A DNA stretch of 64,000 nucleotides, taken from the UHGV virus genome UHGV-1351982; one strand, written 5' to 3'. The translations under genes were made by a program, and so were the position numbers. Every line of letters begins with the position of its first letter. Within the stretch, counting starts at the first letter, position 1. The DNA is from a virus. Below the pieces are notes generated by a model, which worked only from the letters and a program-made list of their open reading frames with translations, did not search any database and was not told the DNA's origin. Below are positions 12,767 to 42,025 of this stretch, one piece after another.

Positions 12767-13377
12767 AGACTTTCCCTCAAGGAAAGTGAAATACCAGTAT
12801 ATGTACCATTACTATTTAACGTAGAGCCGAAGCTGTCTCCGTTCATTAATTTAGTTCTAAATAGAATACCATTAAATACCGGTTTCTCACTACCCGTAGT
12901 AGTAATGAATAGATCAGGGTAAACACTTATATTCCAAGTATTTCCTACTGTGTTGATAGAAGTGATTTTGTACACTTTTGGGTGGTTGGACAATTTAAAT
13001 AAATCGCCTGGTTTAGGCAGTCCACGAAGTGTACCTTTAGTGTCCATAATAACTGTTGAACCTTTTTGTCCAGCAGGAATATTTACAGCACTAGTATCAC
13101 CACGAACTCGGAAAGCTTCATATTGTGGTAATAACACATCAATATAGCTACCTGTTCTTTTGTAATCTAGAATGAATGAATCTAATTTAGCAAATTCATC
13201 TGGGAATAATTCTGGATAAGAGATATTAATACCCCAATATTGAGCAGACACCTTAACCTCCCTAACTTTACCATTAGGTAATTCATCACGAATCATAGGG
13301 TCATTGTCTACTAAGTTAACGCTTTCAAAACCTAACCCTGATAGCTCTGGGTTCGTGTATGGGTCTGGTAGTCTCAT
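12763..13377 (-). CDS. distal tail protein (T5 pb9-like, Dit)
   Basis: 204 aa, same as T5 pb9; located between tape measure and hub. Confidence 0.6.
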   Translation of the reverse strand: MRLPDPYTNPELSGLGFESVNLVDNDPMIRDELPNGKVREVKVSAQYWGINISYPELFPDEFAKLDSFILDYKRTGSYIDVLLPQYEAFRVRGDTSAVNIPAGQKGSTVIMDTKGTLRGLPKPGDLFKLSNHPKVYKITSINTVGNTWNISVYPDLFITTTGSEKPVFNGILFRTKLMNGDSFGSTLNSNGTYTGISLSLRESL

Positions 13378-13403
13378 AGTTAATTTCTCCTCTTAATAAC
13401 AAT

Positions 13404-13432
13404 ATTATAATAGGATTGGAAAATTTTATCAA
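13404..13432 (-). promoter_or_regulatory. sigma70-like promoter (TTGATA-N17-TATAAT) upstream of the pb9-like gene
   Basis: Perfect -10 and near-consensus -35 on minus strand, followed by RBS AAGAGGAG and ATG at 13377. Confidence 0.45.
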
Positions 13433-13454
13433 GAAATTTTTATTTTTCCATAAA

Positions 13455-13480
13455 GAAAAGGAGGACATAAAGTCCTCCTC
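13455..13480 (-). terminator. rho-independent terminator after tape measure gene
   Basis: Hairpin GGAGGAC-TTTATG-TCCTCC followed by U-run on minus-strand RNA. Confidence 0.55.
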
Positions 13481-13485
13481 CAGTA

Positions 13486-16400: not shown

Positions 16401-17166
16401 AGGATGCCTGTCTCATTGCTTCTTCGAAGGAGATTGCGTAACCAGCAGCCTCTTGTAGAGATCTAGCTAGAGTTTGTACCGGAGTACCTGTTTGAGTACC
16501 AACAATAGTACCAAACTTCTCAAGACGGTTTAACTGGTCACCCATCTTAAGCTGTTCAAATGCAGATTGTAGAACGAACACGTTAGATGCGATAGCAGCG
16601 TACATAAGAGGTAAACCACCACCCACTTTAGCCATAGCTGCGAAGTCACGAGTAGCACCACGTGCTGAGCCAGAAGTATTACCAATTGCACGACTAGCAC
16701 GTCCTGCAGCGGTAGTTGTATCATTAAAGCCTCTAGCAGTATTACCTAGGGCTCGGTTAGTATCATATAATCTATCTTGAACTTTTTCAGTTGCAGCAGC
16801 TACATCATTACCCATCGCCTTAACAGATTTACCAACATGTGTAAATCCAGACTCTAGCTTCTCAGATACCTCGATCATAGCAAGGGCAAGATCATCTAGC
16901 TTATCACCAATACCCTCAATGGATTTAGTGATACCAGCCATACCTCTGCTAGCCTGCATTTTAGTTAGACTTTTAGCTGCTCTATCCGCCGCCCTCTCAA
17001 TGGAGTAAAGAGTTTTGGGCATTTTTCCTAACTGCTCATTAGTCAGTTCGGAAGCGGCAGCAGCATTTTCTAACGCATCGGAAACGTTCTCAATAGATTT
17101 TGCAGTACGGGTTGCCCCTTTCTGCTTTACATCTATAAGTAGTTCTCGTATTAGCTTATCAGTCAT
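13486..17166 (-). CDS. pb2: tail tape measure protein (T5 pb2-like)
   Basis: 1226 aa, extensive coiled-coil/Ala-Gln-rich sequence, hydrophobic Gly/Ala-rich segment, position in tail module. Confidence 0.85.
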   Translation of the reverse strand: MTDKLIRELLIDVKQKGATRTAKSIENVSDALENAAAASELTNEQLGKMPKTLYSIERAADRAAKSLTKMQASRGMAGITKSIEGIGDKLDDLALAMIEVSEKLESGFTHVGKSVKAMGNDVAAATEKVQDRLYDTNRALGNTARGFNDTTTAAGRASRAIGNTSGSARGATRDFAAMAKVGGGLPLMYAAIASNVFVLQSAFEQLKMGDQLNRLEKFGTIVGTQTGTPVQTLARSLQEAAGYAISFEEAMRQASSASAYGFDAEQLNKFGLVARRAAAVLGVDMTDALNRVIKGVSKQEIELLDELGVTIRLNDAYADYVKQLNAANTGITYNVNSLSTFQKQQAYANAVIAESTKRFGYLDDVLRATPWEQFAANADAALRKVQQAAAKYLGPVIDSINAVFYTSQASISASAARAQEETNRQIDPTNVGAVALSLSASEEGYNKALDMYKESLEKRNKLKADLDKRMEQADFFTAGAIRSVAQGVPVSAAALGASEENKKFVAETAAMALQVERLDKEVTDSTDNLGAWKSAYQAAGAAAAKANPEFQKQINLQKDMNDPDAVYDFNSATLKGLTEQQKAYDQAKKTASDLANDIQNIAQNTNTAAKTSASLSDTIKTIESLSAGTGKNADEYVKSLNLGYNTLSEMKTASQALAGYVKLTGNETKNQLEVQQKIAEVYNQTKDKEKAQEAGRRLEIQQLEEQEAALKRVLETNKGNKAIEGEIAKIQLERIKITNQGMEAQKKVKDYTDKILGVDREIALLNNRTMTDTQYRLAQLNLELTVEKEKYEWYSKQVDKHKEAEQSRRAQAQIEREIWKFRQDQQREMAAGREEEQQRKFTANPLMGAAERIKEQIQLFEDLKQKTLGNAAAQLEYNKKLAETRAQLAALRVQRDAEMQSSVGAAVGATYTPTTGLTGEDKNFADMQNRMASYDQAISKLSELNSEATAVAQSMGNLTNAMIQFSQGSLDTTSLVAAGMQTVSSMIQYSVGQQVSAIDAAIAAEQKRDGKSEQSKAKIKKLEAEKLKIQQDAAKKQIIIQTAVAVMQAATAVPYPFSIPLMVAAGLAGAMALAQASSASGMSSIGDSGAETAGYLTLGERQKNVDVSMSANAGELSYIRGDQGIGNANSFVPRAEGGNMYPGVSYQMGEHGTEVITPMVPMKATPTDELKGSSKGTSGRPIVLNISTMDAASFRDFASSNSAAFRDAVEQALNENGTTLKSLGNS

Positions 17167-17186
17167 TTATTTTTCCCAATAAAAAA

Positions 17187-17211
17187 GGCTCTGGGCAAAT
17201 CACCCAGAGCC
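17187..17211 (-). terminator. hairpin GGCTCTGGG-CAAATCA-CCCAGAGCC in conserved intergenic element upstream of pb2
   Basis: 9-bp stem; same flanking 25-nt sequence CATTTATTTTTCCCAATAAAAAAGG recurs at 22186-22210. Confidence 0.5.
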
Positions 17212-17246
17212 AAGCCTCATCGTGGAACGCCCATTGGAGGAAACTT

Positions 17247-17615
17247 TTACTGAGCTCGAGATCTAGCATGCGGTTTAATGTTCGGAGTACGACCATTAGG
17301 TTTACTATGCTTCTCGGCTCTCTTACGAGCTGCATCTACAGCTTTCGAATCAAATATATTGATTATGTGTAGAACAAACTCTTTCTCTATGGGATCAGTA
17401 ATCCCATAGATATCAAATAAAACACCTAATGCACTTTTGTCTTTTCCTATAAATATAGGAAAATCGCCTGGTATGAAGCAGTCAATAAGACTATTATAAA
17501 TATTCATACTAGTAGATACAATAGGTGGAAAATCTTCGAGTTCAACAGGCATTGCCTTAGGATCAGGTTCAATACCAAGTGACTCACAAAGCATTAAATA
17601 TTGTTGTTTTGTCAT
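17247..17615 (-). CDS. putative tail assembly chaperone (downstream ORF)
   Basis: 122 aa between major tail gene and tape measure; its frame stays open 29 codons upstream of its ATG and overlaps the preceding ORF. Confidence 0.4.
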   Translation of the reverse strand: MTKQQYLMLCESLGIEPDPKAMPVELEDFPPIVSTSMNIYNSLIDCFIPGDFPIFIGKDKSALGVLFDIYGITDPIEKEFVLHIINIFDSKAVDAARKRAEKHSKPNGRTPNIKPHARSRAQ

Positions 17616-17676
17616 TTTAGATGCCGAGGATTTAATGCATTTATCAGCAAAATCGGCAACAGCATCTAGTAACTGC

Positions 17677-18081
17677 TTACGCTTTTGAGCTACGAAAAGT
17701 GTCTAAGTGGAACACTGTCTGGTTGATCCAAGAATCAAACGCAGCAGAGTTCTGCATAAGCATGATAGCGTTATCGCGACTAAATGGAACTTCAGTAGTA
17801 GGATCAGCCTCAGTTTCGATAAGCATCAGCTTCTCAACATCTCCAATCGTCAAGCCAGTCCAGCCAGCAATTGCAGTATCAACGAAAGCTTCAATAAACT
17901 TATCATCATCCTGAACCTGAATCATAGTACCGTTAACCCACTCGTCACGCTTAGCGGAAGAGATAACACGCTTAGACGCAGCACGAGACATGTAGTTCAG
18001 TTGCAGCTTGAAGTTAGGCATACCTGGGTAAGCCAGCTCAATAGTACGAGTTTCAAGGGTAATATCTTTTAAATTGATCAT
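17677..18081 (-). CDS. putative tail assembly chaperone (upstream ORF)
   Basis: 134 aa, acidic; canonical position of siphovirus chaperone gene pair. Confidence 0.45.
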   Translation of the reverse strand: MINLKDITLETRTIELAYPGMPNFKLQLNYMSRAASKRVISSAKRDEWVNGTMIQVQDDDKFIEAFVDTAIAGWTGLTIGDVEKLMLIETEADPTTEVPFSRDNAIMLMQNSAAFDSWINQTVFHLDTFRSSKA

Positions 18082-18977
18082 TTCTTTATTTCTCCAAAGA
18101 AGTCGATTCTTACCGGATCAGAGTCTGCAGTAGGGATTACATCCCATTCAACTCTGTATATATCCGAGAATTGTAGGCGTTTTGTTATACGTGCTGAAGG
18201 AAAATCAATCGAAATATGTTCATTTCGGATGGTTAATGGTATGTCAGTTTCGGGTTCAATATTATAAAACATATCGCCAGCAAATCGCTTGGTGTAGTAA
18301 AATGCAATTGTTGCCGAAGCATTCATTTCATTAACATAAGCTCTCTTATTATTATATATTTTGTTTATGTCAAATACGCTTTTATCTTCTCTCCAAGAAC
18401 ATTGTTGCTGGAATGACATAGAAGCGGATAAAAGAGCCGGTAAAACGTTACTGTTAGTAGATACTCTAGGAGGACTATATGACATAACTTCACCCTGAAC
18501 AATAGAACCAGCAGGAGTAAAAGTAGACACCTCAGAGAACTTACCAGATTCAATTCCTACGTTTAGAATAGGAACGCTTTTATCTAGAGAAAAGTCTACA
18601 GTAGATACATAGCAATTCTCAAAATACACACAGTTATTATCTTTATTAACTATGTATATATTAAACATTGTTGGCTCAATATTTGTACTATAAAGTGGTA
18701 GTAGGAATGTGTTACCCTCTCGGTCAAAGCCCATCCATTCAAAGAAGTTAGCTTCAGTAAGGGTATTACTAAAATTTATAGCCAGCGATATTGAAGATGG
18801 AGTTTGTGCATTAATAATAGAGTCAGCATAGTTGGTTCTACGATGTATAGTCCTACGAAGAGTTTTAAATTCCTCATAGGACGTATTGATATCGTAATTT
18901 GACAGGGCATCAAAATGATAAGCCCTGCCATCGTACTCAACTATAACTTTTGACTCCCTCATTAGAGAGTAGTACAT
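18078..18977 (-). CDS. minor tail protein (T5 p140-like)
   Basis: 299 aa immediately downstream of major tail tube gene; assignment by synteny only. Confidence 0.4.
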   Translation of the reverse strand: MYYSLMRESKVIVEYDGRAYHFDALSNYDINTSYEEFKTLRRTIHRRTNYADSIINAQTPSSISLAINFSNTLTEANFFEWMGFDREGNTFLLPLYSTNIEPTMFNIYIVNKDNNCVYFENCYVSTVDFSLDKSVPILNVGIESGKFSEVSTFTPAGSIVQGEVMSYSPPRVSTNSNVLPALLSASMSFQQQCSWREDKSVFDINKIYNNKRAYVNEMNASATIAFYYTKRFAGDMFYNIEPETDIPLTIRNEHISIDFPSARITKRLQFSDIYRVEWDVIPTADSDPVRIDFFGEIKK

Positions 18978-18981
18978 TTAA

Positions 18982-20391
18982 TTAGCCACCAGAAGCAGTA
19001 ACTGTAATGCTCTTAGTACCTTCTACACCAGAACCATCTTTAGCTACAGCTTTCACAGTAACTGCACCAGTCTTAGAAGCATCAGCGGTTAGTAACCCAG
19101 AAGTTGCATCAATAGTGGCAGCAGTACCAGAGGAAATAGACCAAGTTACTTCCTTATTAGTAGCTTCAGCAGGTAAAACATCTACAGTCATCTGAAGAGT
19201 TGCACTATTCTTGACGGAAGTTGCATCACCCGCAGATTTAACAGTAATACCTGTTACTTTTACTGGAGCTGCTTTACCACCGTCACCAGTTGCAATCAGA
19301 TTTGCAATAGTAGCTTTGGTGTACTTATTAGAGAAACCAAGATAACCTTCATCACCAGTATCCAGATCAGTAGGAATTGCTTTGAACTCTACAGAAGTAC
19401 CAAGTACATCGTCAGTCTCAATAGTTGGGATGTTTACGTGGGCTTGCTTAGCAACCAGAACAGCAGCAGGGCGCTCATCATCATATTCACCCCCAAGTAC
19501 TAGAGCGATTTCGAAACGGTTAACTACTTTCAGGGTCTTAATTAGATCTTTGTACAGATCCATAGAACCTAGAGCTTTATCGTTAAGATAAGCAGTTAGA
19601 GAACCAGTTAGTTCGAATGCACCAGTAAATGAACCGATTGGGATGTTAACACGGGACATAACGTTCGGAGTCAGGTAGGTGATGTTGTTGTTGATTGTAA
19701 AACTACCACCAGTGATCGGAATGTCATATGCCTTACCAGTATCCATATCCTTAATTTTGAGGATAGTCAGTTTGTTCTTGATATAAGAACCCTGGATAGT
19801 CATGTAAGTTTCATCATCAATACCTACAGTATCAGGATCAAATGGAGCAGCATCCAGAGGGATCAGCTGGTTACCATTACCTGACCAAGTTACACGACCG
19901 ATATCTTCGATATCAACGTTTACTTCAGCCTGGTTGATCTGGCAGGAATCGATGTAGCTCCATGCTTTATCAGTAAGGATGTAAATATGTAGCATTGCCA
20001 GTTCGTGGTATGCGTTATCCTTAAAGTTAACCATGAAGTTAGTTTCGTTAGTGTGTGCACCTGTATCACCATCTAGGTTGATAGGCTTACCACTAGAAAG
20101 AGCATGCCACAGCATGTAGTCCGGAACGATCTGCTTACTCGTAGTCTTGTCTAAGTAAGGCAGGATGTAAGTAGAGAAACTCCACTCAGCTGCGTTCAGG
20201 GAGTCGTTGAAACGTTTTGAACCACGAGTTGGACGCGGACCAGCTTCGTTAACAGTAATATCGGTTGAGTTACTGTCCTGACCCCAAGAAATATCATCTT
20301 GAACTAGAATCTCTTGCGTGTTTTCTTTGGTGTGACCAGACTTAACCGTAGACACGAAGATTCGAGTATTACGTAATAGTTGTAAAGACAT
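18982..20391 (-). CDS. pb6: major tail tube protein with C-terminal Ig-like (Big_2-like) domain (T5 pb6-like)
   Basis: 469 aa; C-terminal VTGITVKSAGDATSVKNSATLQMTVDVLPAEATNKEVTWSISSG.. is Ig-like; synteny. Confidence 0.75.
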   Translation of the reverse strand: MSLQLLRNTRIFVSTVKSGHTKENTQEILVQDDISWGQDSNSTDITVNEAGPRPTRGSKRFNDSLNAAEWSFSTYILPYLDKTTSKQIVPDYMLWHALSSGKPINLDGDTGAHTNETNFMVNFKDNAYHELAMLHIYILTDKAWSYIDSCQINQAEVNVDIEDIGRVTWSGNGNQLIPLDAAPFDPDTVGIDDETYMTIQGSYIKNKLTILKIKDMDTGKAYDIPITGGSFTINNNITYLTPNVMSRVNIPIGSFTGAFELTGSLTAYLNDKALGSMDLYKDLIKTLKVVNRFEIALVLGGEYDDERPAAVLVAKQAHVNIPTIETDDVLGTSVEFKAIPTDLDTGDEGYLGFSNKYTKATIANLIATGDGGKAAPVKVTGITVKSAGDATSVKNSATLQMTVDVLPAEATNKEVTWSISSGTAATIDATSGLLTADASKTGAVTVKAVAKDGSGVEGTKSITVTASGG

Positions 20392-31599: not shown

Positions 31600-32334
31600 T
31601 TAGGCAACTTTTAATTTATCAATGAATTGTTGCGGTGTGGTACTATATTCCGCGCGTTCTTCCTCGGTCATACCTTCCCAACACATTTTTAAACGTTCGG
31701 CTAGGAATTGATAATCGTTATCATCATCAAGCGATTCATCAATAAAGGTTTCACCGATCAATGTTACGCCGATTGATAGGATATCGTTAACGGCTTGAGC
31801 ATCCAGCGTTTTAAATCCAGCACTTGCCGCCGCTGATAATACACCTTTATGATCATCAATCATTGTAAAATCAGCATTAGGATATAGCTGTTTAAACAGT
31901 TCAAAGTAATAAGATTTATATACAGCGTCTTTACTGTGGTATATTTCGCTAACCTTATTTGCATCAAAGTATTTATGTAATGTATCGCGGGAAAATACGC
32001 GAATATTACTATTTCCGCGCCCTCGCAAGCCTTGTTTGCGTAAATAAAAATAATCGCTTTTAGACATTAGGCGCGCGGTACAAATAATATTTAAAGTATT
32101 TGCATCATTCATACATTGGCGCATATATTCAACCAATGGCAATAAAGAATCCTGCATAATTAAATCATGCTTGCAGGCTTCGCGGGAATATTTATTTAAA
32201 TCTAAATTCCCATTATCATCAAAACAAGGCCCGACACGGTGCATTGAGTTAATGATTGTACCGTCTAAATCCCAAATCATAACGCGGGAAATATGCGGGA
32301 AAGTGCGGGTAATATTCATGTTGACTTGATTCAT
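31600..32334 (-). CDS. dmp: 5'-deoxyribonucleotidase (T5 Dmp-like, HAD-family)
   Basis: 244 aa, same length as T5 Dmp; HAD motif I VMIWDLDGTI near N-terminus. Confidence 0.6.
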   Translation of the reverse strand: MNQVNMNITRTFPHISRVMIWDLDGTIINSMHRVGPCFDDNGNLDLNKYSREACKHDLIMQDSLLPLVEYMRQCMNDANTLNIICTARLMSKSDYFYLRKQGLRGRGNSNIRVFSRDTLHKYFDANKVSEIYHSKDAVYKSYYFELFKQLYPNADFTMIDDHKGVLSAAASAGFKTLDAQAVNDILSIGVTLIGETFIDESLDDDNDYQFLAERLKMCWEGMTEEERAEYSTTPQQFIDKLKVA

Positions 32335-32421
32335 TTGTTACATTCTCCATTTAAGGGATTTAGGTTAATTCAATCTTGCCAGCTAATTATATTGGATTAG
32401 CTGGCAATGTTCAATTAACTA

Positions 32422-32814
32422 TTAATTAGTGAGGCCATACGCTAGCGCGTCACCAATAAAGCTAAGATCTTCACCATGTACGCTAGAACGAATCCCCGCG
32501 CAAGTGTAGACCATCGCGCTAGCTTCTGGATTGCAGACCGGACACGGCTTAACAACCGCAAACGCTAGACCGGATTTAAGCGCATCAATAATAATTGTTT
32601 GTACTGTTAAAGTATCAGCGTAAACACCTTTTGCTTTTGTATGGCTTGCCACTTTGCCGGTATCATAAGCAAAGGTAGTAACCTGCAAAACGTCGTTATA
32701 ATTCAGCAAATCGAAATTAACTTGCCCCGCCTCGACGTGATAACGTTCGCCATTAGAATAAACTAGAACGATGGAAGAAGTAGCGCGGTCAAAAGGAATG
32801 CTTTGGTTTTTCAT
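32422..32814 (-). CDS. hypothetical pre-early protein
   Basis: 130-aa ORF between dmp and A1-like gene. Confidence 0.4.
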   Translation of the reverse strand: MKNQSIPFDRATSSIVLVYSNGERYHVEAGQVNFDLLNYNDVLQVTTFAYDTGKVASHTKAKGVYADTLTVQTIIIDALKSGLAFAVVKPCPVCNPEASAMVYTCAGIRSSVHGEDLSFIGDALAYGLTN

Positions 32815-32846
32815 GTTTATGACTCCAGATTATTTAATTACGGGAT

Positions 32847-33125
32847 TTATTGAAAAAATACATTTAAAGATAAATCAGTTTTACGAAAATATGTTTCGTC
32901 GCCGTCTTTCCTTTCTTGATTAAGGTAATCGCCTGTCATTACCTGAATAGAATCTTTTCCGAAAAAGATCATATTTTCGCCAATATTACTATCCCATACG
33001 GCGTACATTCCCGCGTACATTCCACGGGTAACTAAATAAACGCAACTATCAAAAGACATTTCAGACCATGCAATATCTTCTAAACAATTGCTATCAGGGA
33101 TAGATATATTAATTTTACTAGCCAT
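32847..33125 (-). CDS. hypothetical pre-early protein
   Basis: 92-aa ORF. Confidence 0.4.
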   Translation of the reverse strand: MASKINISIPDSNCLEDIAWSEMSFDSCVYLVTRGMYAGMYAVWDSNIGENMIFFGKDSIQVMTGDYLNQERKDGDETYFRKTDLSLNVFFQ

Positions 33126-33177
33126 TTAATAAACCTTTTATTAATGGCGGTATATTTCAACCGCCGATTAAATTTAA

Positions 33178-34842
33178 TTATGCAAAGAATTTACCGTTCT
33201 TAAAGTCAATCAATGTTCTTTGACCGTTTGCATAGGTAATTAAATGCGTTTGCGTCCAGCTTGACGCGCCCACGTTGTAGCCCATATCAAGGGAACCAGC
33301 AACGCCAGCGGTATAAACGCCGCCGTAAATGCTAGCCGTATGAGTATGACCAGTGTTAAGGCGTCCCAACTTTTTAAACTGCTTAGGATTGCCCCGACTG
33401 CCGTTAATGCCATTGTGACCATGTACGCCGCATTCAATGCCAGCGATTTTAAACGACTGGTCAGTAGTCAGGAAAATAGCGTTAAATTCGCAACCTGCGA
33501 CACTACGCAAGGCGTAATCTAGCACGTTAAAAGTATCATCCTTTTCAGCAATAGCGGCGTATATAGCAGCGTTTAGACGGTGATACAATTCCGCGTTTGC
33601 GGGATCGTCTTTAATGTTAGCGTTACGATCATCTAACCAGCGGGATAAAGCTAAATCATGGTTAGATTCAACAATGATTGTTTGAGAGAAATCACGCTCC
33701 ATTGATTCTAATACGCGTCCAGTGTCGATAAGATCATCTAGAACCTTGTCACGTCCTGCGGCGTACTGTTTAGCAAGGAATACACCACTAGCGCGGTTGT
33801 GATGGTTACGCGATGTAAAATCATGCACATCATGAATAAACTGATATTTAGGCTTGAGAATATCAAGCAAGCTGTTTTCACTAGCCCATGAAGCAACGGC
33901 GCATTCATCATCTAATTTTTCGGCGTGAATATCACCATATTGCAAGCCTAGAACATGATCGGACGTTTCAAAACATCCGGTAGGCATAGCGCAAACATTC
34001 AAATCATAAAACATTCCGCTTTCGTCCATCGTTTCAAGCTGACGAACAAAAAATTCGCCGTCGTCGTCAAATTCTACCAGCAAAGCGCCGAAATTATGTA
34101 AAGCCTCGGCCTTTTGTCCTGCCTTTTGCTGGATATAGTTTTTAAGCGTAGCCGTTCCGGTTGAATACATACGGCGCACTACTTCACCTTTTAACGCTGG
34201 CACACTTTCAGCGGTAATTTTAGCGTGACCAATTGCCAGACCTTCAATATTTAAAGCCGTGGCGGTTTCTGCGAATCCTGAAAGCGGATAGTCTGCCGTT
34301 GGTAACACGTTAATTTCAGCCATGAAAGCAAAACGGCGATTATTTAAAAATACGTTTTTCTCGCAAATATATTTATTAAATGCGGGATCGTATTTAATGC
34401 CTTCGTTACCTTCTCCATTCTGGAAGCCGTTTTTATTGTAAATGAATTTACTAACCAGCAATTCACCGCCGATATATTCAGCGAATTTTTCCAGACTTGC
34501 TAAAAAGTTTTTATGCGGGAAAGTATTATTTTGAATCGACGTTAGAATAAAACGGCGACCGGATTTAACTTCCCACTGTTCCACGGTACTAGAAACAATT
34601 CCCGCCGCTTCGGGGCGATCATCATTTTTAATCGCCTTTTCAGCTTTTGCCGCTTTCGGTTTTGCTGGCTTATTTGCTTCCAACCAATCGCAAATTGCGG
34701 TTGAATGTTTCGTTGTATCGTAAACAGCTTTTGATATATCGTCGCAAACTTCCAGCTTAGTAGCGCGTAAACGTTTACCGTAGAAATTAAAATCAGCGGC
34801 AAGTTTAACGATCTGGGCTTGTTTTTCTGCGGAAATATTCAT
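33178..34842 (-). CDS. A1: A1-like pre-early protein with metallophosphatase motifs
   Basis: 554 aa (T5 A1 about 556 aa); calcineurin-like motifs GDIHAE and GHTHTASIYGG; in pre-early region next to dmp. Confidence 0.6.
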   Translation of the reverse strand: MNISAEKQAQIVKLAADFNFYGKRLRATKLEVCDDISKAVYDTTKHSTAICDWLEANKPAKPKAAKAEKAIKNDDRPEAAGIVSSTVEQWEVKSGRRFILTSIQNNTFPHKNFLASLEKFAEYIGGELLVSKFIYNKNGFQNGEGNEGIKYDPAFNKYICEKNVFLNNRRFAFMAEINVLPTADYPLSGFAETATALNIEGLAIGHAKITAESVPALKGEVVRRMYSTGTATLKNYIQQKAGQKAEALHNFGALLVEFDDDGEFFVRQLETMDESGMFYDLNVCAMPTGCFETSDHVLGLQYGDIHAEKLDDECAVASWASENSLLDILKPKYQFIHDVHDFTSRNHHNRASGVFLAKQYAAGRDKVLDDLIDTGRVLESMERDFSQTIIVESNHDLALSRWLDDRNANIKDDPANAELYHRLNAAIYAAIAEKDDTFNVLDYALRSVAGCEFNAIFLTTDQSFKIAGIECGVHGHNGINGSRGNPKQFKKLGRLNTGHTHTASIYGGVYTAGVAGSLDMGYNVGASSWTQTHLITYANGQRTLIDFKNGKFFA

Positions 34843-34951
34843 AACTAATTCAACTCCTATAAAGGGATAAAGATTAAAGCTGGCAATATTGCCAAATATA
34901 ACGCCTTGCCTGAAGTGAGGACAATTTAAAAGGCGTTATAATTTGCAACAT

Positions 34952-35176
34952 TTAATTAATCGGCATTAAACTAGAACAAAAGCCAAATACAATGCCAATT
35001 GTAAGAAAGATAATTGACATATATTTTTGAATGTTCGCGTTTTTGCGGAAATTATTTGCGGCGTAAACGTTATTAATTCCAATTATTGCCAGAATTGACC
35101 GCGTATAATTCAGAATAAAAGCGGCGGCAATAATAAATAAACCTAAAATAAACGCTTCGCTAGGATAAAAGATCAA
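34952..35176 (-). CDS. small membrane protein
   Basis: 74 aa, two hydrophobic helices. Confidence 0.35.
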   Translation of the reverse strand: MIFYPSEAFILGLFIIAAAFILNYTRSILAIIGINNVYAANNFRKNANIQKYMSIIFLTIGIVFGFCSSLMPIN

Positions 35177-35226
35177 GATTATTCTCCTTTAAGGGATAGC
35201 GGGGAATATTCCCCGCTAATTAAAAT

Positions 35227-35643
35227 TTATTCACCTGCGGCCTGTTTTACTTCCTCCGCTACGCCTAACAATTGCGCTACGGCGTCCAGCGTTTCCAGTT
35301 TTGCACTTTCCAGACTTGCCAAATCGTCGGCATCTTTTACAATGCCGCTATCAATGGCATGTTTAGCAATGACGCGCACATAGTGAGCTTTACGGACAGA
35401 GCTACCGCCGCCAACTTTACGCGGTTTATCGCTTTTCTGATAGGCTTTTGCACTGGCCAATTTAGAACGTACAGAAACAGGGGACGCAGCGCCAACGGCG
35501 GCGGCAATTTCTTTTAAGCCGTCACTATTCGCAAACTCAATCCCGCTTTTAGCAACCATTTCAGAGTACATAGAAACAGCTTTTTCGGTGTTTTCTTCGT
35601 TCCAAGAGAATTTTGCGGTTTTTTCGGTTTTAACGTTAGACAT
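35227..35643 (-). CDS. A2-like pre-early protein (putative DNA-binding)
   Basis: 138 aa immediately upstream of A1-like gene; size and position as T5 A2. Confidence 0.4.
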   Translation of the reverse strand: MSNVKTEKTAKFSWNEENTEKAVSMYSEMVAKSGIEFANSDGLKEIAAAVGAASPVSVRSKLASAKAYQKSDKPRKVGGGSSVRKAHYVRVIAKHAIDSGIVKDADDLASLESAKLETLDAVAQLLGVAEEVKQAAGE

Positions 35644-35743
35644 AATTTAATACTCCATTCAATTATTAATTAAGGGATTATGATTAACTAATGTTAATCC
35701 ATATATTCCCCATATTTCAGGGGAATATAAAAGTAACACTAAT

Positions 35744-35995
35744 TTATGCTATAGCTTGCCATTTATCATCTTTCTGAATGATCTTTACAACGTCGCCAGA
35801 TTTAACGCGAACATTATAAATAGGCTTGCTGTTGTTACTGCGTTCCGTTTCCGCATAGACCGCTTCAATCTTATCAAAGGGATCAAGCGCCGCACCTTTG
35901 ATACGTTCGGCTTTTCCGGTTAATTCATCAGTTTTAGTTACAAAAGGAATGAAAACAGATTGACCTACTTTCGGCGCGGTAATAACGTTTTGCAT
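35744..35995 (-). CDS. hypothetical protein
   Basis: 83-aa ORF. Confidence 0.4.
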   Translation of the reverse strand: MQNVITAPKVGQSVFIPFVTKTDELTGKAERIKGAALDPFDKIEAVYAETERSNNSKPIYNVRVKSGDVVKIIQKDDKWQAIA

Positions 35996-36159
35996 TTTTA
36001 ATACTCCGGTTTATTGGGGATTATTCCACAATAGCGCCTCGATACTTTGAAACGCTATTAGATTATAATCCGCTAGGAGTTAGCCTAAACATTACCATTA
36101 TCCAAATTTTTAAAGAGCAGTTACTACGGGGAACATCTTAAAACCTATCGGCTAGCGTG

Positions 36160-36378
36160 TCAAGCGTTTTTTAAACTTTTTTCGATTTGATGTGAGTTAT
36201 ATAAATCAATCATTATATTACGCCACACCATTTCCAGACCTTGCTGCTTACCTTTCTTGTATTGCTTGAATCTGTATTTTACAGATCGTTGCGCTACTGT
36301 CAACAAATTTTTTGTTCTGCTATCCAGTGGGCTAGCAGGTTTTGCACTAATCACTAAAGCGTTTTTTGATTTGATCAT
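36160..36378 (-). CDS. hypothetical basic protein
   Basis: 72-aa basic ORF. Confidence 0.35.
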   Translation of the reverse strand: MIKSKNALVISAKPASPLDSRTKNLLTVAQRSVKYRFKQYKKGKQQGLEMVWRNIMIDLYNSHQIEKSLKNA

Positions 36379-36760
36379 TATCGTCGATTCCTTATAATGT
36401 ATAAGTTTACCGCCGATAGGCTTTAAGATGTTCCCTAGTTTTTAAAGAGCATGGCGGTAAACTTCCCCGCCGTGTAATCTTGCGTTTCGTTTCCGTCCCG
36501 CCGTCCTACGAGATAAATAATAGGGGATTCCCGAAAATGGCGCAACCTTATTTTTGTAAAGAAACGTAAAGAAAACCACTACCCGCACCACGGCAAGCGG
36601 CGCACTAAGTTTAATGAAACAGGCGCGCGAATAACACTAAAACAACCACTTTAGCAAGTAATTTTTTCATTTATATCTGCTCTAGGGTACTTGACAAAAT
36701 CTAAAATCCTCGTGGTGAGGTTTTCTCGGTGTACCCCTTATGATTGCCTATCTTTTCCTT

Positions 36761-36798
36761 TGATGCGCTTAGAATCGCTTACAGAGCGTTTTAGACCC
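36761..36798. repeat. direct repeat copy 1 (TGATGCGCTTAGAATCGCTTACAGAGCGTTTTAGACCC)
   Basis: About 85 percent identical to 40503-40538 by eye. Confidence 0.6.
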
Positions 36799-37010
36799 TG
36801 TTAATAACTTATACAAAAAGCAAAAATGAAATTTAATGAGTTATCCACTTGATTTTTCAAAAAAGTATTTTCTGCTGTTATTTTTCATTGACAAATAAGT
36901 TTAGACGTGCATTGATTGGTTAGCAGACTAACAATCGCTAGGATAATAATCACGCTGGTGGATTGTAACAGCCGAAACAGTTAGCAGACTATTAATACTC
37001 TAAAAACCTA

Positions 37011-37041
37011 TTAGCCAACTAACTATTTCATATTATATAAT
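37011..37041 (+). promoter_or_regulatory. candidate promoter (-10 TATAAT with ATAAATT leader) about 430 nt upstream of the plus-strand cluster
   Basis: TATAATATACTTATAAATT matches the conserved early promoter/leader motif; -35 weak. Confidence 0.35.
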
Positions 37042-37099
37042 ATACTTATAAATTAAAGAGAAATAATAACTATAAGAAACTATCGGCTAAGTGAGAACC

Positions 37100-37222
37100 A
37101 CTATCATTTAGGTTATTCACAAAGTTATCCACAGCACAAAATAACTTGACGCAATAGGCGACGTTTTGGCGACTTATCCACAGACTTATGTACAGGTTAT
37201 CCTACTGTATAAATATACAGGG
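37100..37222. repeat. left copy of about 120-bp imperfect inverted repeat carrying two DnaA boxes (TTATTCACA 37113-37121, TTATCCACA 37125-37133), a third DnaA box (37174-37182) and a LexA-like box (37203-37222)
   Basis: Reverse complement of 40567-40690 aligns by eye; includes an identical 16-mer TTATCCACAGACTTAT. Confidence 0.6.
37203..37222. promoter_or_regulatory. LexA (SOS) box-like palindrome TACTGTATAAATATACAGGG
   Basis: CTGT-N8-ACAG core with AT-rich spacer, close to the E. coli consensus TACTGTATATATATACAGTA. Confidence 0.5.
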
Positions 37223-37469
37223 TAGAATGGTAGCAGTAACAACCGCAATCAAATTTAAGCGGCCTAGAACGCGCTACACGGCGTTTTCTCACTGCTACCC
37301 TTATTATAATAAAGCCTTGTGTACGCTTACAGAGAGCTAGAAATAGAAAACGCGCGGTTATCATAAAAACAGGCAGTAGGCAAGGAATAAAAAACCTTTT
37401 CTTTTTTCTTGCCCATAGTGAACAAATATCTATATCATTCACTCACCGATTAACGAGGGAGGCAAAGAA

Positions 37470-38489
37470 ATGTCTACTGTAAGAATTGCAGTGCCAGCAA
37501 ACGCAACTATTGTTAAAGGTAGTTTGCGCAACCTGCTAGATGGTAGTAGTGCGGCAAGTATTCAGCACACCGCTACTATTGTAGAAAAGATTCACGATGA
37601 AATTTTAGACAATAATGATACTCATTATTCAGTTGATGATTTCACGCTATTACTAGACCAGACAAGGGCGCTAGTAATTTTCAACCGTGATTATCACATT
37701 TTCCGTAATAGTCGGGGAACTGATATTGATTTTATCATTGTTGGTTATAGTGAGTCTCATAGTGGTTACATTGCGCGATTATATAACGTGCAAGAAAAGG
37801 AGCAGGTAACAGCAACAAAAGTAAATAATATCCGGCTGGATAGTGTCGGATCGTTATTAAATAGTATCTGGCGTGAATTATCCTCAAGCTATAAAGGTGC
37901 GGATAGTGACGCAATCGAAACAACTGGCGTATTGTGTTTTGAAAAGTCAACGGGTAACATGTTGATCCCTAGCGATTATTTAGGGTATGGGAATGAATCA
38001 AACGTTGCAAACGCTGGATTTACACTTTTCCCGCTTGACAATGTAACAAAACAGGCTGTAAACTCTCAAACTTCAAGCGCAATTGCGCAAACTACTGAAA
38101 ATAAAGGAAATAACACTATGTCTAAAGTAACCGCTATCGTTGCCGCTAATAAATCCGCCGCCGCTACCGCTGCAAAACTGGAAGCGGGTAAAGTAGCACT
38201 AACTCAGCTTACAAAAGTAGCGGCTAAAGCCCTGCCTTCTGGTATGGCTGGCATGTTCGCTAAACAGTATTTAGATACTCCGGTCGGGCGCGTTGTTGTT
38301 GCCAACTTGTTAAATCTGGCAATCGAACAATACGCACCGAATAACCAGAAAGCGCGAATTGTTGCTAAAGCCGCAATGGATGCCGCAATGCTGGAAGTGG
38401 TACAGAGTTTCAATATTTCTGAAATGATCGACAAGGCAATCGAGGGAATCAACATTGATGCTTTGACTGCTAATATTTCAGAAGAGTAA
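37470..38489 (+). CDS. hypothetical protein (339 aa), first gene of plus-strand pre-early cluster
   Basis: Strong RBS GAGGGAGG before ATG; own terminator hairpin after stop; no recognisable domain. Confidence 0.5.
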   Translation: MSTVRIAVPANATIVKGSLRNLLDGSSAASIQHTATIVEKIHDEILDNNDTHYSVDDFTLLLDQTRALVIFNRDYHIFRNSRGTDIDFIIVGYSESHSGYIARLYNVQEKEQVTATKVNNIRLDSVGSLLNSIWRELSSSYKGADSDAIETTGVLCFEKSTGNMLIPSDYLGYGNESNVANAGFTLFPLDNVTKQAVNSQTSSAIAQTTENKGNNTMSKVTAIVAANKSAAATAAKLEAGKVALTQLTKVAAKALPSGMAGMFAKQYLDTPVGRVVVANLLNLAIEQYAPNNQKARIVAKAAMDAAMLEVVQSFNISEMIDKAIEGINIDALTANISEE

Positions 38490-38498
38490 TAATAACAA

Positions 38499-38525
38499 GC
38501 GGGAATTAATTTTCCCGTTTTCTTC
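38499..38525 (+). terminator. terminator-like hairpin after the 339-aa gene
   Basis: CGGGA-ATTAATTT-TCCCG followed by TTTTCTT. Confidence 0.45.
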
Positions 38526-38547
38526 CCTTTTAGTTAGGAGACTAATT

Positions 38548-39039
38548 ATGTTTGGTAACAGAAATTATGGCAACCCTATTGAAGCACGATCCCTTAATCA
38601 TGACGCAATTGTATTCACTCATGCGTCTACCGGTTATTGTGGATCAGATGGGAATGATTATCATTTCGTTCCCGCTGGTGACGATATTGATGATCTATGT
38701 AATGAGGCAGGTTATGAAAATGCTTGCTCTTATGGTCTAGAAGTTATTGAAGTAGACGACGGCGAATATGAGGATAATGATAATATTGAATGCTCCGCTT
38801 ATCATTATCAGTTAAGTGAATCAGGTTGTTATATTGGCGGCGGCGATCCTATTAATTCCATCACTGAAATAATTATTGAAAATGGTGGCGTTTCGCTGAA
38901 TGGTAACAAGGCGTTACTATATGCAAACCGATTAAAGCAACTTGTATATATTCCTGATGGGAAAGAATGGGAAGAATACAACGTTCTAATTGCAGAATTG
39001 AAAAGCTGTTTCGGCGTGGAAGTGGTAGAAATAGTCTAA
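38548..39039 (+). CDS. strongly acidic hypothetical protein (163 aa)
   Basis: RBS TTAGGAGA; Asp/Glu make up over one fifth of residues with very few Lys/Arg, several Cys. Confidence 0.5.
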   Translation: MFGNRNYGNPIEARSLNHDAIVFTHASTGYCGSDGNDYHFVPAGDDIDDLCNEAGYENACSYGLEVIEVDDGEYEDNDNIECSAYHYQLSESGCYIGGGDPINSITEIIIENGGVSLNGNKALLYANRLKQLVYIPDGKEWEEYNVLIAELKSCFGVEVVEIV

Positions 39040-39054
39040 TGTAAAGTTTTGTAA

Positions 39055-39081
39055 AGGTCGCCCTAATCGGCGGCCTTTTTT
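39055..39081 (+). terminator. rho-independent terminator (GGTCGCC-CTAATC-GGCGGCC then TTTTTT)
   Basis: GC stem plus T6 immediately after the stop at 39039. Confidence 0.6.
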
Positions 39082-39146
39082 GTTATAATGCCTTTACACC
39101 GAAACGGTGGATTGAAAATTTTCCCTGATTTCTAGGAGGCGTTAAA

Positions 39147-39377
39147 ATGGTTGCTTTCTCTTCTTCTGACTCCCTTTTCACTGGTAAAGGTTGGGTATCT
39201 AATCGCTGGATCATTGATCAAATGGTTTCGGAATTTGGGATTGGTAAAACTTATGTTACCATTCAGGCGCTTTATGATAATGACAAGATTGACCAGCAAA
39301 CCGCCGGATTTTTGCTGGATACGCTGAAAGCGGAACATTGCACTAAAAAGCAAGCGGCAAAAATTGTTTTAATGTAA
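39147..39377 (+). CDS. hypothetical protein (76 aa)
   Basis: RBS CTAGGAGG; followed by hairpin GGGGCG-TTACTTTC-GCCCC. Confidence 0.45.
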   Translation: MVAFSSSDSLFTGKGWVSNRWIIDQMVSEFGIGKTYVTIQALYDNDKIDQQTAGFLLDTLKAEHCTKKQAAKIVLM

Positions 39378-39424
39378 TTAATAACGGGGCGTTACTTTCG
39401 CCCCTCATTCCCTTACTAGGAGTT

Positions 39425-39643
39425 ATGCAAATGTTAAAGAATGTTTCCCTTGCCCGTTCTAAAGGTTTTAAGCTGGTGGATGTTAACACCTTCGAGCGTC
39501 CAGATTGTAAAATCGAATATGTAGCACGCAACAAAAACCCTTTCCGTGTTACAGAAAAGAAATTTGACAAGCGCGGCAATTTGATAGCCGAAACGGTTAA
39601 ACACTTTGCTACTTTTTACGCTGCTTTTCGTGGGGTATTATGA
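39425..39643 (+). CDS. hypothetical basic protein (72 aa)
   Basis: RBS CTAGGAG; possible 33-aa hydrophobic ORF (39642-39743) overlapping its stop. Confidence 0.45.
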   Translation: MQMLKNVSLARSKGFKLVDVNTFERPDCKIEYVARNKNPFRVTEKKFDKRGNLIAETVKHFATFYAAFRGVL

Positions 39644-39752
39644 GATCCTTATATATTGCTCTAGCGTTTGCTACTGTTGGCGTTGTATGCTCATTCGCCG
39701 CATTTGTTTTAAAAATGTACATGATATTTTCCCAGCTTTAGGAGGTTGACAA

Positions 39753-40100
39753 ATGGTAATTTATGAGGGCAATCGTTTTGTTGCTAATTGCCGTCCGGCA
39801 TTGTTAGCAAACTATTTAAATCAGCTTTCACCAGTTTATAAAGGCGTGGTTAATATCTATGAAGGCAAAGCACATTATAAAATTTCTGCCGTTGTCGCTC
39901 GCGAGCTTGCCTTTCAGTTTCTTACTTTTAACTCATGCGATATTCAGGTTATGGGTGAGCCATTAGTCGCAGAAAATGAAAATGAATTTATTGACATTTT
40001 CCGCAAAGTATGTACAGAGCGCCTGATTATGAAGGGCGCGTATATTCAATCAACCGCTGAAAGTATTGAAACAGCGTTTCGAAAAATTGTAAATGAATAG
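39753..40100 (+). CDS. hypothetical protein (115 aa)
   Basis: RBS TTAGGAGG 8 nt before ATG. Confidence 0.45.
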   Translation: MVIYEGNRFVANCRPALLANYLNQLSPVYKGVVNIYEGKAHYKISAVVARELAFQFLTFNSCDIQVMGEPLVAENENEFIDIFRKVCTERLIMKGAYIQSTAESIETAFRKIVNE

Positions 40101-40226
40101 CTGGTGGCGAAAAACACAAAGCCATAAATCTAATAATACCGCTGGGAAACATTCCCAGCGTTTACGATTTGGTAATGGCTGCGTAATGATATTGATAATC
40201 ATCCTCATTCTAGGAGCGATGGCGTT

Positions 40227-40421
40227 ATGAGTGATAAAATTGTTGTAACTAAAACTACTGTTACCGTTGATACTTTCTTTGTGCCTGATACGCTGGAAAA
40301 TCGGCAATTAGTCGAGCGTGGCGATTATGACAAAGTGATATATGATGGGGATGGATACTATCAACATTTGGTAGACTCCTACGGCGAAAGCGAAAAGATC
40401 ACACATCGACTACCAGACTAA
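40227..40421 (+). CDS. hypothetical acidic protein (64 aa)
   Basis: RBS CTAGGAGC; terminator follows. Confidence 0.4.
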   Translation: MSDKIVVTKTTVTVDTFFVPDTLENRQLVERGDYDKVIYDGDGYYQHLVDSYGESEKITHRLPD

Positions 40422-40427
40422 TAATAA

Positions 40428-40457
40428 CGGGGCGCAACTATCGGCCCCGTCTTTTCT
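40428..40457 (+). terminator. rho-independent terminator (CGGGGCG-CAACTATC-GGCCCCG then TCTTTTCT)
   Basis: Strong GC hairpin and T-rich tail after last gene of plus-strand cluster. Confidence 0.6.
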
Positions 40458-40502
40458 GGCCTTCCTCAAATTTCCCCTTATTAAAATACCTCTTCCAAAA
40501 AT

Positions 40503-40538
40503 AAACGCGTTAGAATGCGTTACAGAGCGTTTTAGAGC
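40503..40538. repeat. direct repeat copy 2 (AAACGCGTTAGAATGCGTTACAGAGCGTTTTAGAGC)
   Basis: Matches 36761-36798. Confidence 0.6.
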
Positions 40539-40566
40539 TATATTAGAGTTATTCACTACGCAGGAA

Positions 40567-40586
40567 TACTGTATAAATATACAGTA
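40567..40586. promoter_or_regulatory. near-consensus LexA (SOS) box TACTGTATAAATATACAGTA
   Basis: Perfect palindrome TACTGTAT/ATACAGTA, 19 of 20 matches to the E. coli LexA consensus. Confidence 0.55.
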
Positions 40587-40690
40587 GAATAATCTGTTGA
40601 TAAGTCTGTGGATAACGCCTCAAAATCGCTAGGATTTTGTCAAGTCAAATCGTGCTGTTAATAAACCTGTGGATAACTTAAATAACAGTG
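40567..40690. repeat. right (inverted) copy of the about 120-bp repeat with LexA box (40567-40586) and two DnaA boxes TGTGGATAA (40607-40615, 40668-40676)
   Basis: Reverse complement aligns with 37100-37222. Confidence 0.6.
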
Positions 40691-40708
40691 TTTCTCACTT
40701 CGCTTTGT

Positions 40709-40852
40709 AAATGCGAGTCATTCTCATTATCATTCGCGTTTCCCTTCCTAAATGCAAATCATTCTCATTCGTATTCCGGTAGTCAAATGATAACTATTCT
40801 CATTCGCATTCAACTTCTCAAATGCGAATCAATCTCATTATCATTCGCATTT
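40709..40852. repeat. four tandem copies of a palindromic unit (AATGCGA..TTCTCATT..CATTCGC)
   Basis: Units at about 40709, 40750, 40785 and 40820; last unit has perfect 10-bp arms AAATGCGAAT/ATTCGCATTT. Confidence 0.6.
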
Positions 40853-40889
40853 CGGCAGGCAGGGCATTTTCTATTTGCCCTGCGCTTTT

Positions 40890-41489
40890 GTGCAAATCCG
40901 ACATTTGCCCCCACGGATTACGTGCCAGCGTGTATGTGCGAATCCGACAATTTTTGGTAGTGTGCAAATCCGACCCGAAATATTTTTATAGTGTGCGAAT
41001 CCGACAATGAATTTCCCTAAAAACTCCAGCAATCTCGAACTGCGATCGAATCCTGTGGGATATGCGCAAATCCGACATGAGTTTGCTAGGAGACAGATTT
41101 ATGGTTTCAGGAATATTTTTGTGACTTCGATGAGAGGGTGTGTAATTGTGTGAGTTTGGGGAGAAGTGCGAATCCGATGAGGTTTTGGGAGGAACTATGA
41201 GAGGAGCAGCGGTGTTGGTGCTTTAGCACCGATTTGCTGCGTTTTTGGGGATAATGTGAGATGTTTTGGGATAATTGGGCGTGGGGTGAGATAAAGTGAA
41301 ATTTTATTAGTTAAATGGGGCAAAATCGCTTGACAAGTGAAAATTCCTGTGTCCCTAAAAACTCAGGCAATCATGGGCCTTCGGCCCGAAATAATGCTGC
41401 TATTTTCAGGAGATTATGTGCTCATGAAAACTTAGGCAATTGTGCAAATCCGACCAGTTTTTAAACTTATATCAGTGTGCAAATCCGAT
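40890..41489. repeat. iteron-like array: 8 direct copies of GTGC(A/G)AATCCGA(C/T), all in one orientation, irregular spacing
   Basis: Copies at 40890, 40936, 40962, 40993, 41064 (variant GCGCAAATCCGAC), 41166, 41442, 41477. Confidence 0.7.
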
Positions 41490-42025
41490 AGCAATTTCCA
41501 GAAATGTGTTTTCAAAAAATGTTGTCTAGAAATAACCGCCCTCCCCATAACCGCCCTGTATTAACCGCCTATTGCTGGAGTTTCTAGGAACATGAAAACC
41601 GCCTGAGTTAATGGGAGTTTTCCTAGAAACTTAGGAGTCTAGAAGAAAGTGTTGTGCCATCCTAGCAGATGAGCGGCAACAGGTGTATCATCTTGAACGT
41701 TAATTTATCTATTTAACAGTATTAGTTTTTATATAAGTATAAGATCCCCAAGGGTTCTCATATAGAGCTTTGCCCCCGCCAGAAGGTCTCGTGATGTTTC
41801 TAGTAATCTTTATTAAATTACTTGTTGACTTGTCCTGTCGCTCCGTAACCTACGCTACAAGTCAGTAATTTAAGATTCCTGAACCACCACACCTTCTGTG
41901 TGGCAACTCTAAATGGTTAATTCTATTAACTCATAGAGTTATGATAACATACATTTAGCTATCTGTCAACGAGAGTTTGTATCTGAGTCTCGGTACAGGT
42001 ATTGTGCACCGAGACATGCAGGATC

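Follow-up and report, generated by a model that had tools for sequence, protein, structure and literature searches.

T7 Ocr (gp0.3) is a DNA-mimic inhibitor of type I restriction-modification (R-M) and of BREX, and forms an all-helical dimer shaped like bent B-DNA. It is small, very acidic and non-enzymatic, is encoded on the DNA that enters the cell first, and can be dispensed with under laboratory conditions. ArdA (PF07275), an anti-restriction DNA mimic found on plasmids and transposons, has about 165 residues and is likewise carried in an early-entering region, while Ugi, p56 and SAUGI are small, acidic alpha/beta proteins that inhibit uracil-DNA glycosylase as DNA mimics. Small acidic proteins can also be the trigger of a defence system, as in the case of PARIS, which responds to Ocr and to the T5 proteins Ptr1 (ORF094) and Ptr2 (ORF103); judging by their ORF numbers, we take the latter two to lie outside the 17-gene pre-early set of T5.

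T5-like phages find wide use in biocontrol and therapy, and for the majority of their pre-early genes no function has yet been assigned. Provided that the sites are outside the terminal repeat, T5 and BF23 resist restriction of types I, II and III; the two phages likewise escape methylation by the host, but the gene behind this resistance has not been identified (PMC10644984). Resistance is a trait of Tequintavirus, whereas Epseptimavirus phages are measurably restriction-sensitive (PMC8594841). Only dmp, A1, A2 and T5p007 occur in every T5-like phage, and the last of these has been proposed as a candidate for restriction insensitivity (bioRxiv 10.1101/866236). In addition, T5.011 has a toxic effect on E. 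coli, in which it disrupts the organisation of the nucleoid (bioRxiv 10.64898/2026.04.02.716235), and T5.015 binds Ung and nicks the abasic sites that Ung makes (PMC8201957). Here, we analyse a 64,000-nucleotide stretch of viral DNA (UHGV virus genome UHGV-1351982, hereafter "the window") that encodes a 163-aa acidic protein, which an initial annotation had likened to Ocr and ArdA and linked to the restriction evasion of T5.

The acidic gene lies in a T5-like pre-early operon

The window belongs to an Epseptimavirus, a T5-like phage of the Demerecviridae, and its closest relatives are Salmonella phages 1-29 and EH3 and E. coli phage NG_S8, with about 97% identity at the DNA level. In its rightward operon, the DUF7566 gene (the T5.011 homologue) is followed by the acidic gene and then by homologues of T5.012, T5.014 and T5.015 (Table 1). 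In Stitch and BF23, the homologue of the acidic gene is located inside the annotated terminal repeat, that is, in first-step-transfer (FST) DNA. The initial annotation had described the protein as pre-early and its gene as the second of the cluster; both descriptions agree with the synteny with dmp, A1 and A2, with the position directly after the T5.011 homologue and with the terminal repeats of Stitch and BF23, so that pre-early expression, as read from gene order, is well supported.

The non-coding region to the right of the T5.015 homologue contains at least seven copies of a TGTGCAAATCCGAC-containing repeat, several families of 27–51-nt direct repeats and two DnaA-box-like CTGTGGATAAC sites, features that are consistent with the injection-stop-signal (iss) region of T5. 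Late tail genes, including the gene for a tape-measure protein of 1226 aa, lie upstream of the FST region. From this it follows that the window does not begin at the physical left end of the genome, and that it either comes from an assembly that is circularly permuted or in which the terminal repeat has collapsed, or else extends across the right terminal repeat. A pre-early transcriptome and proteome have been published for the phage Bas33 (PMC13250531).

Table 1 Features of the window discussed in the text (positions of the whole 64,000-nucleotide stretch).
Feature	Position	Strand	Details
Late tail genes	12763-20391		upstream of FST region
Tape-measure protein gene, 1226 aa	13486-17166		among the late tail genes
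FST region	31600-41600		
dmp	31600-32334	-	
A1	33178-34842	-	
A2	35227-35643	-	
Sigma-70-like promoter match upstream of DUF7566 gene	37409-37438	+	consensus match only
DUF7566 protein gene, 339 aa, T5.011 homologue	37470-38489	+	Pfam PF24450, E 3.8e-124
Present/absent cassette (hairpin, RBS, ORF), about 545 bp	38494-39036	+	approximate extent; alignment with T5, BF23, Stitch
Hairpin with U-rich tail between DUF7566 and acidic genes	38497-38520	+	-12.2 kcal/mol, z -3.8; terminator-like
Shine-Dalgarno AGGAG	38536-38540	+	read from sequence; 7 nt before ATG
CDS of 163-aa acidic protein, PHROG 6741 family	38548-39039	+	ATG start; dN/dS 0.13; AlphaFold2 pLDDT 86.6, pTM 0.79
Codons for residues 42-81: helix alpha1 and next hairpin, conserved acidic face	38671-38790	+	15 Asp/Glu, 0 Lys/Arg
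Codons for residues 101-163: C-terminal alpha/beta domain	38848-39036	+	5 of 7 basic residues
Intrinsic terminator ending the DUF7566-acidic unit	39053-39078	+	RNA fold -16.2 kcal/mol, z -3.3
Extended -10 element TGTTATAAT	39081-39089		right after terminator
T5.014 homologue, 71/72 aa	39425-39643		
T5.015 homologue (Ung-dependent AP-site nickase), 115 aa	39753-40100	+	in distant relatives adjoins acidic-family gene
Non-coding repeat and DnaA-box-like region	40580-41600		

The promoter match upstream of the DUF7566 gene is likely to be the start of a two-gene unit composed of this gene and the acidic gene, and in T5 there is an experimentally characterised promoter at the equivalent site upstream of gene 011 (bioRxiv 10.64898/2026.04.02.716235). 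The terminator that closes the unit is conserved in T5, where it lies directly 3' of T5.011. Between the two genes there is a hairpin, whose equivalent is present in Stitch and BF23 and absent in T5, and which may serve as a partial terminator, an attenuator or an mRNA stabiliser. The phages T5, BF23 and Stitch all conserve the TGTTATAAT element that follows the terminator; it is probably where the next pre-early unit starts, with the T5.012 homologue as its first gene.

A mismatch of labels affects two of the genes further downstream. RefSeq and PHROG 4227 both attach the description "endonuclease nicking abasic sites generated by host Ung" to the short T5.014 homologue. Pfam PF26847 (Phage_T5_AP_Endonuclease), however, matches proteins of 110–130 aa, and BLAST searches with these lead to the longer gene of the window, the homologue of locus tag T5.015, and the experimental paper uses this name. 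The mismatch probably goes back to an off-by-one annotation that was then propagated.

Charge is concentrated in one stretch of a protein under purifying selection

The ORF, which starts with ATG, has exactly the extent given in the initial annotation, and the computed isoelectric point (4.05) and net charge (about -23 at pH 7) confirm that its product is strongly acidic. The accompanying statement on composition, that Asp and Glu exceed one fifth of the residues with almost no Lys or Arg, is slightly too high in its first part, the acidic fraction being 30/163, or 18.4%; Lys and Arg together number seven (4.3%). Of the 65 ATG-initiated ORFs in the window that are 100 aa or longer, a list that includes nested ORFs, this one is the most acidic. 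The ORF scan also picked up "acidic ORFs" at about 13.6 and 16.1 kb; these fall within the tape-measure gene, and we discarded them as artefacts.

Half of the acidic residues (15 of 30) fall within residues 42–81, where there is no Lys or Arg; a density of 15 acidic residues in any 40-residue window was matched by 174 of 10,000 shuffled sequences. The gap without Lys or Arg is longer still, and extends from R14 to K121 (residues 15–120). The C-terminal domain (residues 101–163), in which most of the few basic residues lie, is strongly conserved across the alleles of Markadamsvirinae and is variable or missing in distant members of the family.

When the gene was compared with the 94%-identical allele of Obesumbacterium phage Ob_P, dN/dS was 0.13 at a dS of 0.26, which indicates that the ORF is real and that it is under purifying selection within its allele class. 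A functionless or decaying ORF that merely hitch-hikes would fit with the empty sites of the T5 type described below, from which the gene appears dispensable in nature. This explanation is nevertheless largely refuted by the low dN/dS, by an ORF that is intact and has a good ribosome-binding site in more than 300 genomes, by the retention of the family across Demerecviridae subfamilies and by a confident predicted fold that its members share, and we consider it to have almost no likelihood.

A Demerecviridae family with a conserved acidic face

The only assignment of the acidic protein is to PHROG 6741, which it matches over its full length (E 1.3e-48); scans of it against Pfam, NCBIfam and PADLOC gave no match. 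An exhaustive profile search of 1.84 billion representative proteins recovered 31 clusters; a Pfam scan of all 31 members yielded weak zinc-ribbon matches and single chance matches, such as one to DinI at E 0.03. A search for related loci with a shallower family alignment found 13 loci. Every family context inspected, in Markadamsvirinae, Klebsiella Sugarlandvirus, Pectobacterium Hongcheonvirus and metagenomic contigs carrying A1 and A2, was a T5-like pre-early operon headed by a DUF7566 gene, and the family is restricted to Demerecviridae. Our literature search found no paper or experiment on its members.

Although identity within the family falls to 20–30%, all 31 representatives are acidic, with isoelectric points of 4.05–4.8 and net charges of -10 to -33, so that the high negative charge and low pI typical of DNA mimics are here a family-wide property. 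The charge is also conserved in its location, since the equivalent of residues 42–81 carries a net charge of -10 to -16 in 31/31 representatives. Within this stretch, acidic residues are conserved at the columns of D48 (94%), E53 (90%) and E57 (81%), and also at columns 65 (E65), 69–71, 76 and 78. By contrast, the only near-invariant residues are T28, G29, G32, A55, A59 and G98; these Gly, Ala and Thr residues are structural and do not form a catalytic constellation, and the lack of any invariant polar residue argues against an enzyme. Many members carry a CxxC...CxxC zinc-ribbon insert within the 42–81 stretch; in the window protein a short acidic loop takes its place, and the common allele described below also has no ribbon. 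Two distant members, L023 37-822 (P0034) and P0040, have acidic C-terminal extensions of about 80–100 aa to which no domain could be assigned.

A predicted alpha/beta fold distinct from known DNA mimics

AlphaFold2 gave a confident model of the acidic protein (scores in Table 1), made up of an N-terminal beta3-alpha-beta3 unit and a C-terminal alpha-beta-beta-alpha-alpha-beta unit, and predicted the same topology for a zinc-ribbon homologue, with the insert following helix alpha1. Judged by sequence, D49, E53 and E57, at positions i, i+4 and i+8 of helix alpha1, would point to one face. Comparison of the model with solved structures, Ocr, ArdA and Ugi included, produced only matches below significance, and sequence searches of the PDB with phmmer and with the family profile returned unrelated proteins (best E 0.85 and 1.1). 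The predicted fold thus has no solved relative and is putatively new. A fold from a non-mimic enzyme family, which the initial annotation had named as grounds for abandoning mimicry, did not emerge from the structure prediction.

The likening to Ocr and ArdA fared less well, as neither Pfam, nor PDB sequence searches, nor fold searches gave any similarity to either protein. The acidic protein resembles Ocr in being small, very acidic, encoded on first-entering DNA, dispensable and apparently non-enzymatic, but differs from the all-helical Ocr dimer in its predicted alpha/beta fold with two sub-domains, and belongs to the Ocr family neither by sequence or profile homology nor by fold. In the case of ArdA, the length, the similar net negative charge and the early-entering location are shared, whereas the Pfam domain, the three-domain fold and any sequence or fold match in the PDB are lacking, and we found no plasmid homologues of the acidic gene.

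The structural data also bear on a different biochemical role, as a metal- or cation-binding protein, a small enzyme, or a nucleic-acid-binding protein of zinc-ribbon or OB-like type. OB-folds with an inserted zinc ribbon, as in the MCM N-terminal domain and RPA70C, consist of a five-stranded barrel with a helix between strands 3 and 4 and the ribbon in a loop. The zinc ribbon of many homologues points in this direction, and the Gly-rich loops TGxCG and GGDP, which are conserved, might make up a ligand site. However, the ribbon must be dispensable, since the window protein and the common allele do without it; invariant polar residues are absent, structural matches are all below significance, and a domain that has no Lys or Arg and a net charge of -20 is unsuited to nucleic-acid binding. 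We therefore regard such a role as highly improbable.

The gene is carried on an optional cassette

A tblastn search of the left terminal repeat of T5 revealed no trace of the acidic gene. In T5, the stop codon of T5.011 is followed by the terminator and then by T5.012, with no intervening gene, and in the alignment a clean T5 gap covers the hairpin, ribosome-binding site and ORF. Directly after the stop codon of the acidic gene, at the terminator, DNA identity to T5, BF23 and Stitch returns to 88–95%. When the T5 junction was used as a probe against Salmonella and Escherichia phages, empty sites gave a single piece of 281 bp and occupied sites gave two, over a span of about 828 bp, a polymorphism that was clean in both genera.

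In the phage collection, A1 was found in 275 Salmonella, 127 Escherichia and 81 Klebsiella records, DUF7566 in 251, 115 and 79, and the acidic gene in 162, 73 and 70, respectively. Overall, 333 phage records carry the acidic gene, compared with 496 that carry DUF7566 and about 480 enterobacterial records with A1. The gene is thus present in about 60% of the Salmonella and Escherichia relatives and missing from about 40%, which makes it accessory. With its defined boundaries, its flanking hairpin and terminator and its polymorphism among close relatives, the segment has the properties of an accessory, moron-like pre-early cassette.

This distribution is difficult to reconcile with the suggestion that the acidic protein is an Ocr/ArdA-type mimic that blocks type I R-M and forms the basis of restriction evasion in T5-like phages. 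Strong acidity, small size, first-injected DNA and the lack of an enzyme fold all speak for it. Yet the gene is absent from T5 itself and is common in the more restriction-sensitive Epseptimavirus (Bas27 being one carrier), so that its occurrence does not track restriction resistance. Since T5 has no copy while restriction-sensitive relatives do, the acidic protein cannot underlie the restriction insensitivity of T5, for which T5p007 is the published candidate, and the gene can be taken off the list of candidates for this classic trait. Furthermore, resistance to three types of restriction, together with avoidance of methylation (PMC10644984), is broader than a type I mimic explains. Together with the predicted alpha/beta fold, which matches neither Ocr nor ArdA, this leaves inhibition of type I R-M very unlikely.

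Exchange of old alleles and, in the window lineage, of part of the neighbouring gene

Between the window and Stitch, which belong to the same genus, the acidic proteins are 51.5% identical and the DUF7566 proteins 83%, while other pre-early proteins are mostly 93–100% identical. The divergent block, of about 830 bp, runs from around position 38200, in the last third of the DUF7566 gene (its last ~100 aa), to the stop codon of the acidic gene. There are at least three allele classes of the acidic gene: a common, BF23/Stitch-like class with 229 records at 80% DNA identity or more; the rare class of the window, with 7 of the 333 carrier records at 94% identity or more, which is about 50% identical to the common class; and a zinc-ribbon class (L020 and P0013–P0015). 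Pairwise dN/dS between classes is 0.3–0.5, with dS saturated at about 1 or more. We did not take these values as a sign of positive selection; with dS saturated, the pattern reflects an exchange of old alleles rather than demonstrable recent positive selection.

The DUF7566 gene and the acidic gene are the fastest-diverging of the pre-early genes, the DUF7566 protein having 47% identity to its T5 counterpart as against about 90% for A1. The C-terminal 100 aa of the window's DUF7566 protein are about 63% identical to a type that is elsewhere at least 92% conserved; this part of the protein is Ala-rich and looks helical.

The type of DUF7566 C-terminus co-varies with the allele of the acidic gene (r = 0.82). 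We do not count this figure in favour of co-adaptation, since a single allele class produces it and L020 runs counter to it.

It is nevertheless conceivable that the acidic protein is a partner or regulator of phage toxins that tempers, localises or chaperones the DUF7566 protein or the T5.015-like nickase, or, in another version, a self-protection factor that keeps DNA-directed activities off phage DNA. The sequence arrangement suggests that DUF7566 and the acidic gene share one transcript, with a single promoter before them and a single terminator after them, and in the window lineage one block comprising both the DUF7566 C-terminus and the acidic gene was exchanged. In distant Demerecviridae, moreover, the family gene adjoins the T5.015-like gene, with start and stop bases shared or overlapping in L005, L022, L023 and L024, and both neighbours, T5.011 and T5.015, are toxic to E. 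coli when expressed alone. Against this, T5 possesses both toxins without the acidic gene, and T5.015 works in vitro with Ung alone (PMC8201957). The zinc-ribbon allele L020 is paired with the common DUF7566 C-terminus, and the co-variation reflects a single exchange event that is confounded by physical linkage; in an operon as short as the pre-early one, adjacency is in any case weak evidence. On balance, we consider a partnership with the toxins unlikely, though a serious alternative to the decoy proposed below.

The frequent proximity to an Ung-dependent nickase gene also invites comparison with Ugi, p56 and SAUGI, which the acidic protein resembles in its small size, acidity and alpha/beta architecture. 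It differs from them in that the model has no fold match to these inhibitors and thus provides no grounds for placing it among Ugi-type proteins. Furthermore, Ugi cancels T5.015 activity experimentally (PMC8201957); as any Ung inhibitor would do the same, a role of this kind is unlikely.

A tentative role as an early decoy

We tentatively favour a reading in which the acidic protein is an accessory early decoy, or inhibitor, of a host nucleic-acid-binding protein, although we would put this at somewhat below an even chance. It is preferred because the charge is localised and conserved, because neither a catalytic signature nor an enzyme fold was found, because the gene lies in first-injected DNA and because its distribution is accessory and mosaic, with alleles that are swapped. 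According to this proposal, the cassette and the T5.011-like DUF7566 gene would be transcribed together within minutes of the start of infection, and the cassette would yield a small, non-enzymatic alpha/beta protein whose functional feature would be the Lys/Arg-free, strongly negative face made up of helix alpha1 and the hairpin after it. We infer that binding would occur by charge mimicry, with the acidic face filling the surface by which a host protein binds polyanions (DNA or RNA) and inactivating that protein early, as a stoichiometric decoy. The target might be a strain-specific defence nuclease or sensor, or else a DNA-repair or nucleoid factor, and the decoy would act beside the neighbouring host-DNA-directed toxins of T5.011-like and T5.015-like type.

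A precedent is provided by the small acidic T5 and T7 proteins Ocr, Ptr1 and Ptr2, which are recognised in defence interactions. Ptr1 and Ptr2 in particular are, like the acidic protein, small, highly acidic and uncharacterised proteins of T5-like phages, and they demonstrate that host immunity can sense, or be acted on by, proteins of this sort; they differ in being present in T5, whereas the acidic gene is pre-early and absent from it.

Several considerations weigh against the decoy. Many phage early proteins are acidic for unrelated reasons. As T5 and about 40% of its relatives thrive without the gene, any target must be dispensable or strain-specific. In addition, a location beside two phage toxins fits a phage-internal role equally well.

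Being made before the rest of the genome enters, the protein is a candidate strain-specific counter-defence or host-takeover factor. If a host target were found, the family could explain some of the host-range differences among near-identical Epseptimavirus and Tequintavirus isolates, and the protein would provide a new structural solution to protein-based charge mimicry. A bolder extension, which we think distinctly unlikely, is that the family forms a new structural class of pre-early acidic decoy across Demerecviridae and, together with the T5.011-like toxin and the T5.015-like nickase, a three-part module for attack on host DNA. In such a module, the acidic protein would either disable a host defence protein involved in DNA repair or DNA sensing, so that nicked host DNA is neither rescued nor sensed, or shield the phage's own first-injected DNA from the T5.011-like and T5.015-like activities; the latter possibility would be relevant to how T5-like phages can destroy the DNA of the host yet spare their own.

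Turning to distant T5-like phages, the position right after DUF7566 can also hold other small acidic ORFs, which the family profile does not match. These are ORFs of 164 aa in L022 (3335-3829, pI 4.3), of 174 aa in L024 (5136-5660, pI 4.5) and of 101 aa in L026 (5685-5990, pI 4.27), which suggests that the pre-early operon has a recurrent "acidic protein slot".
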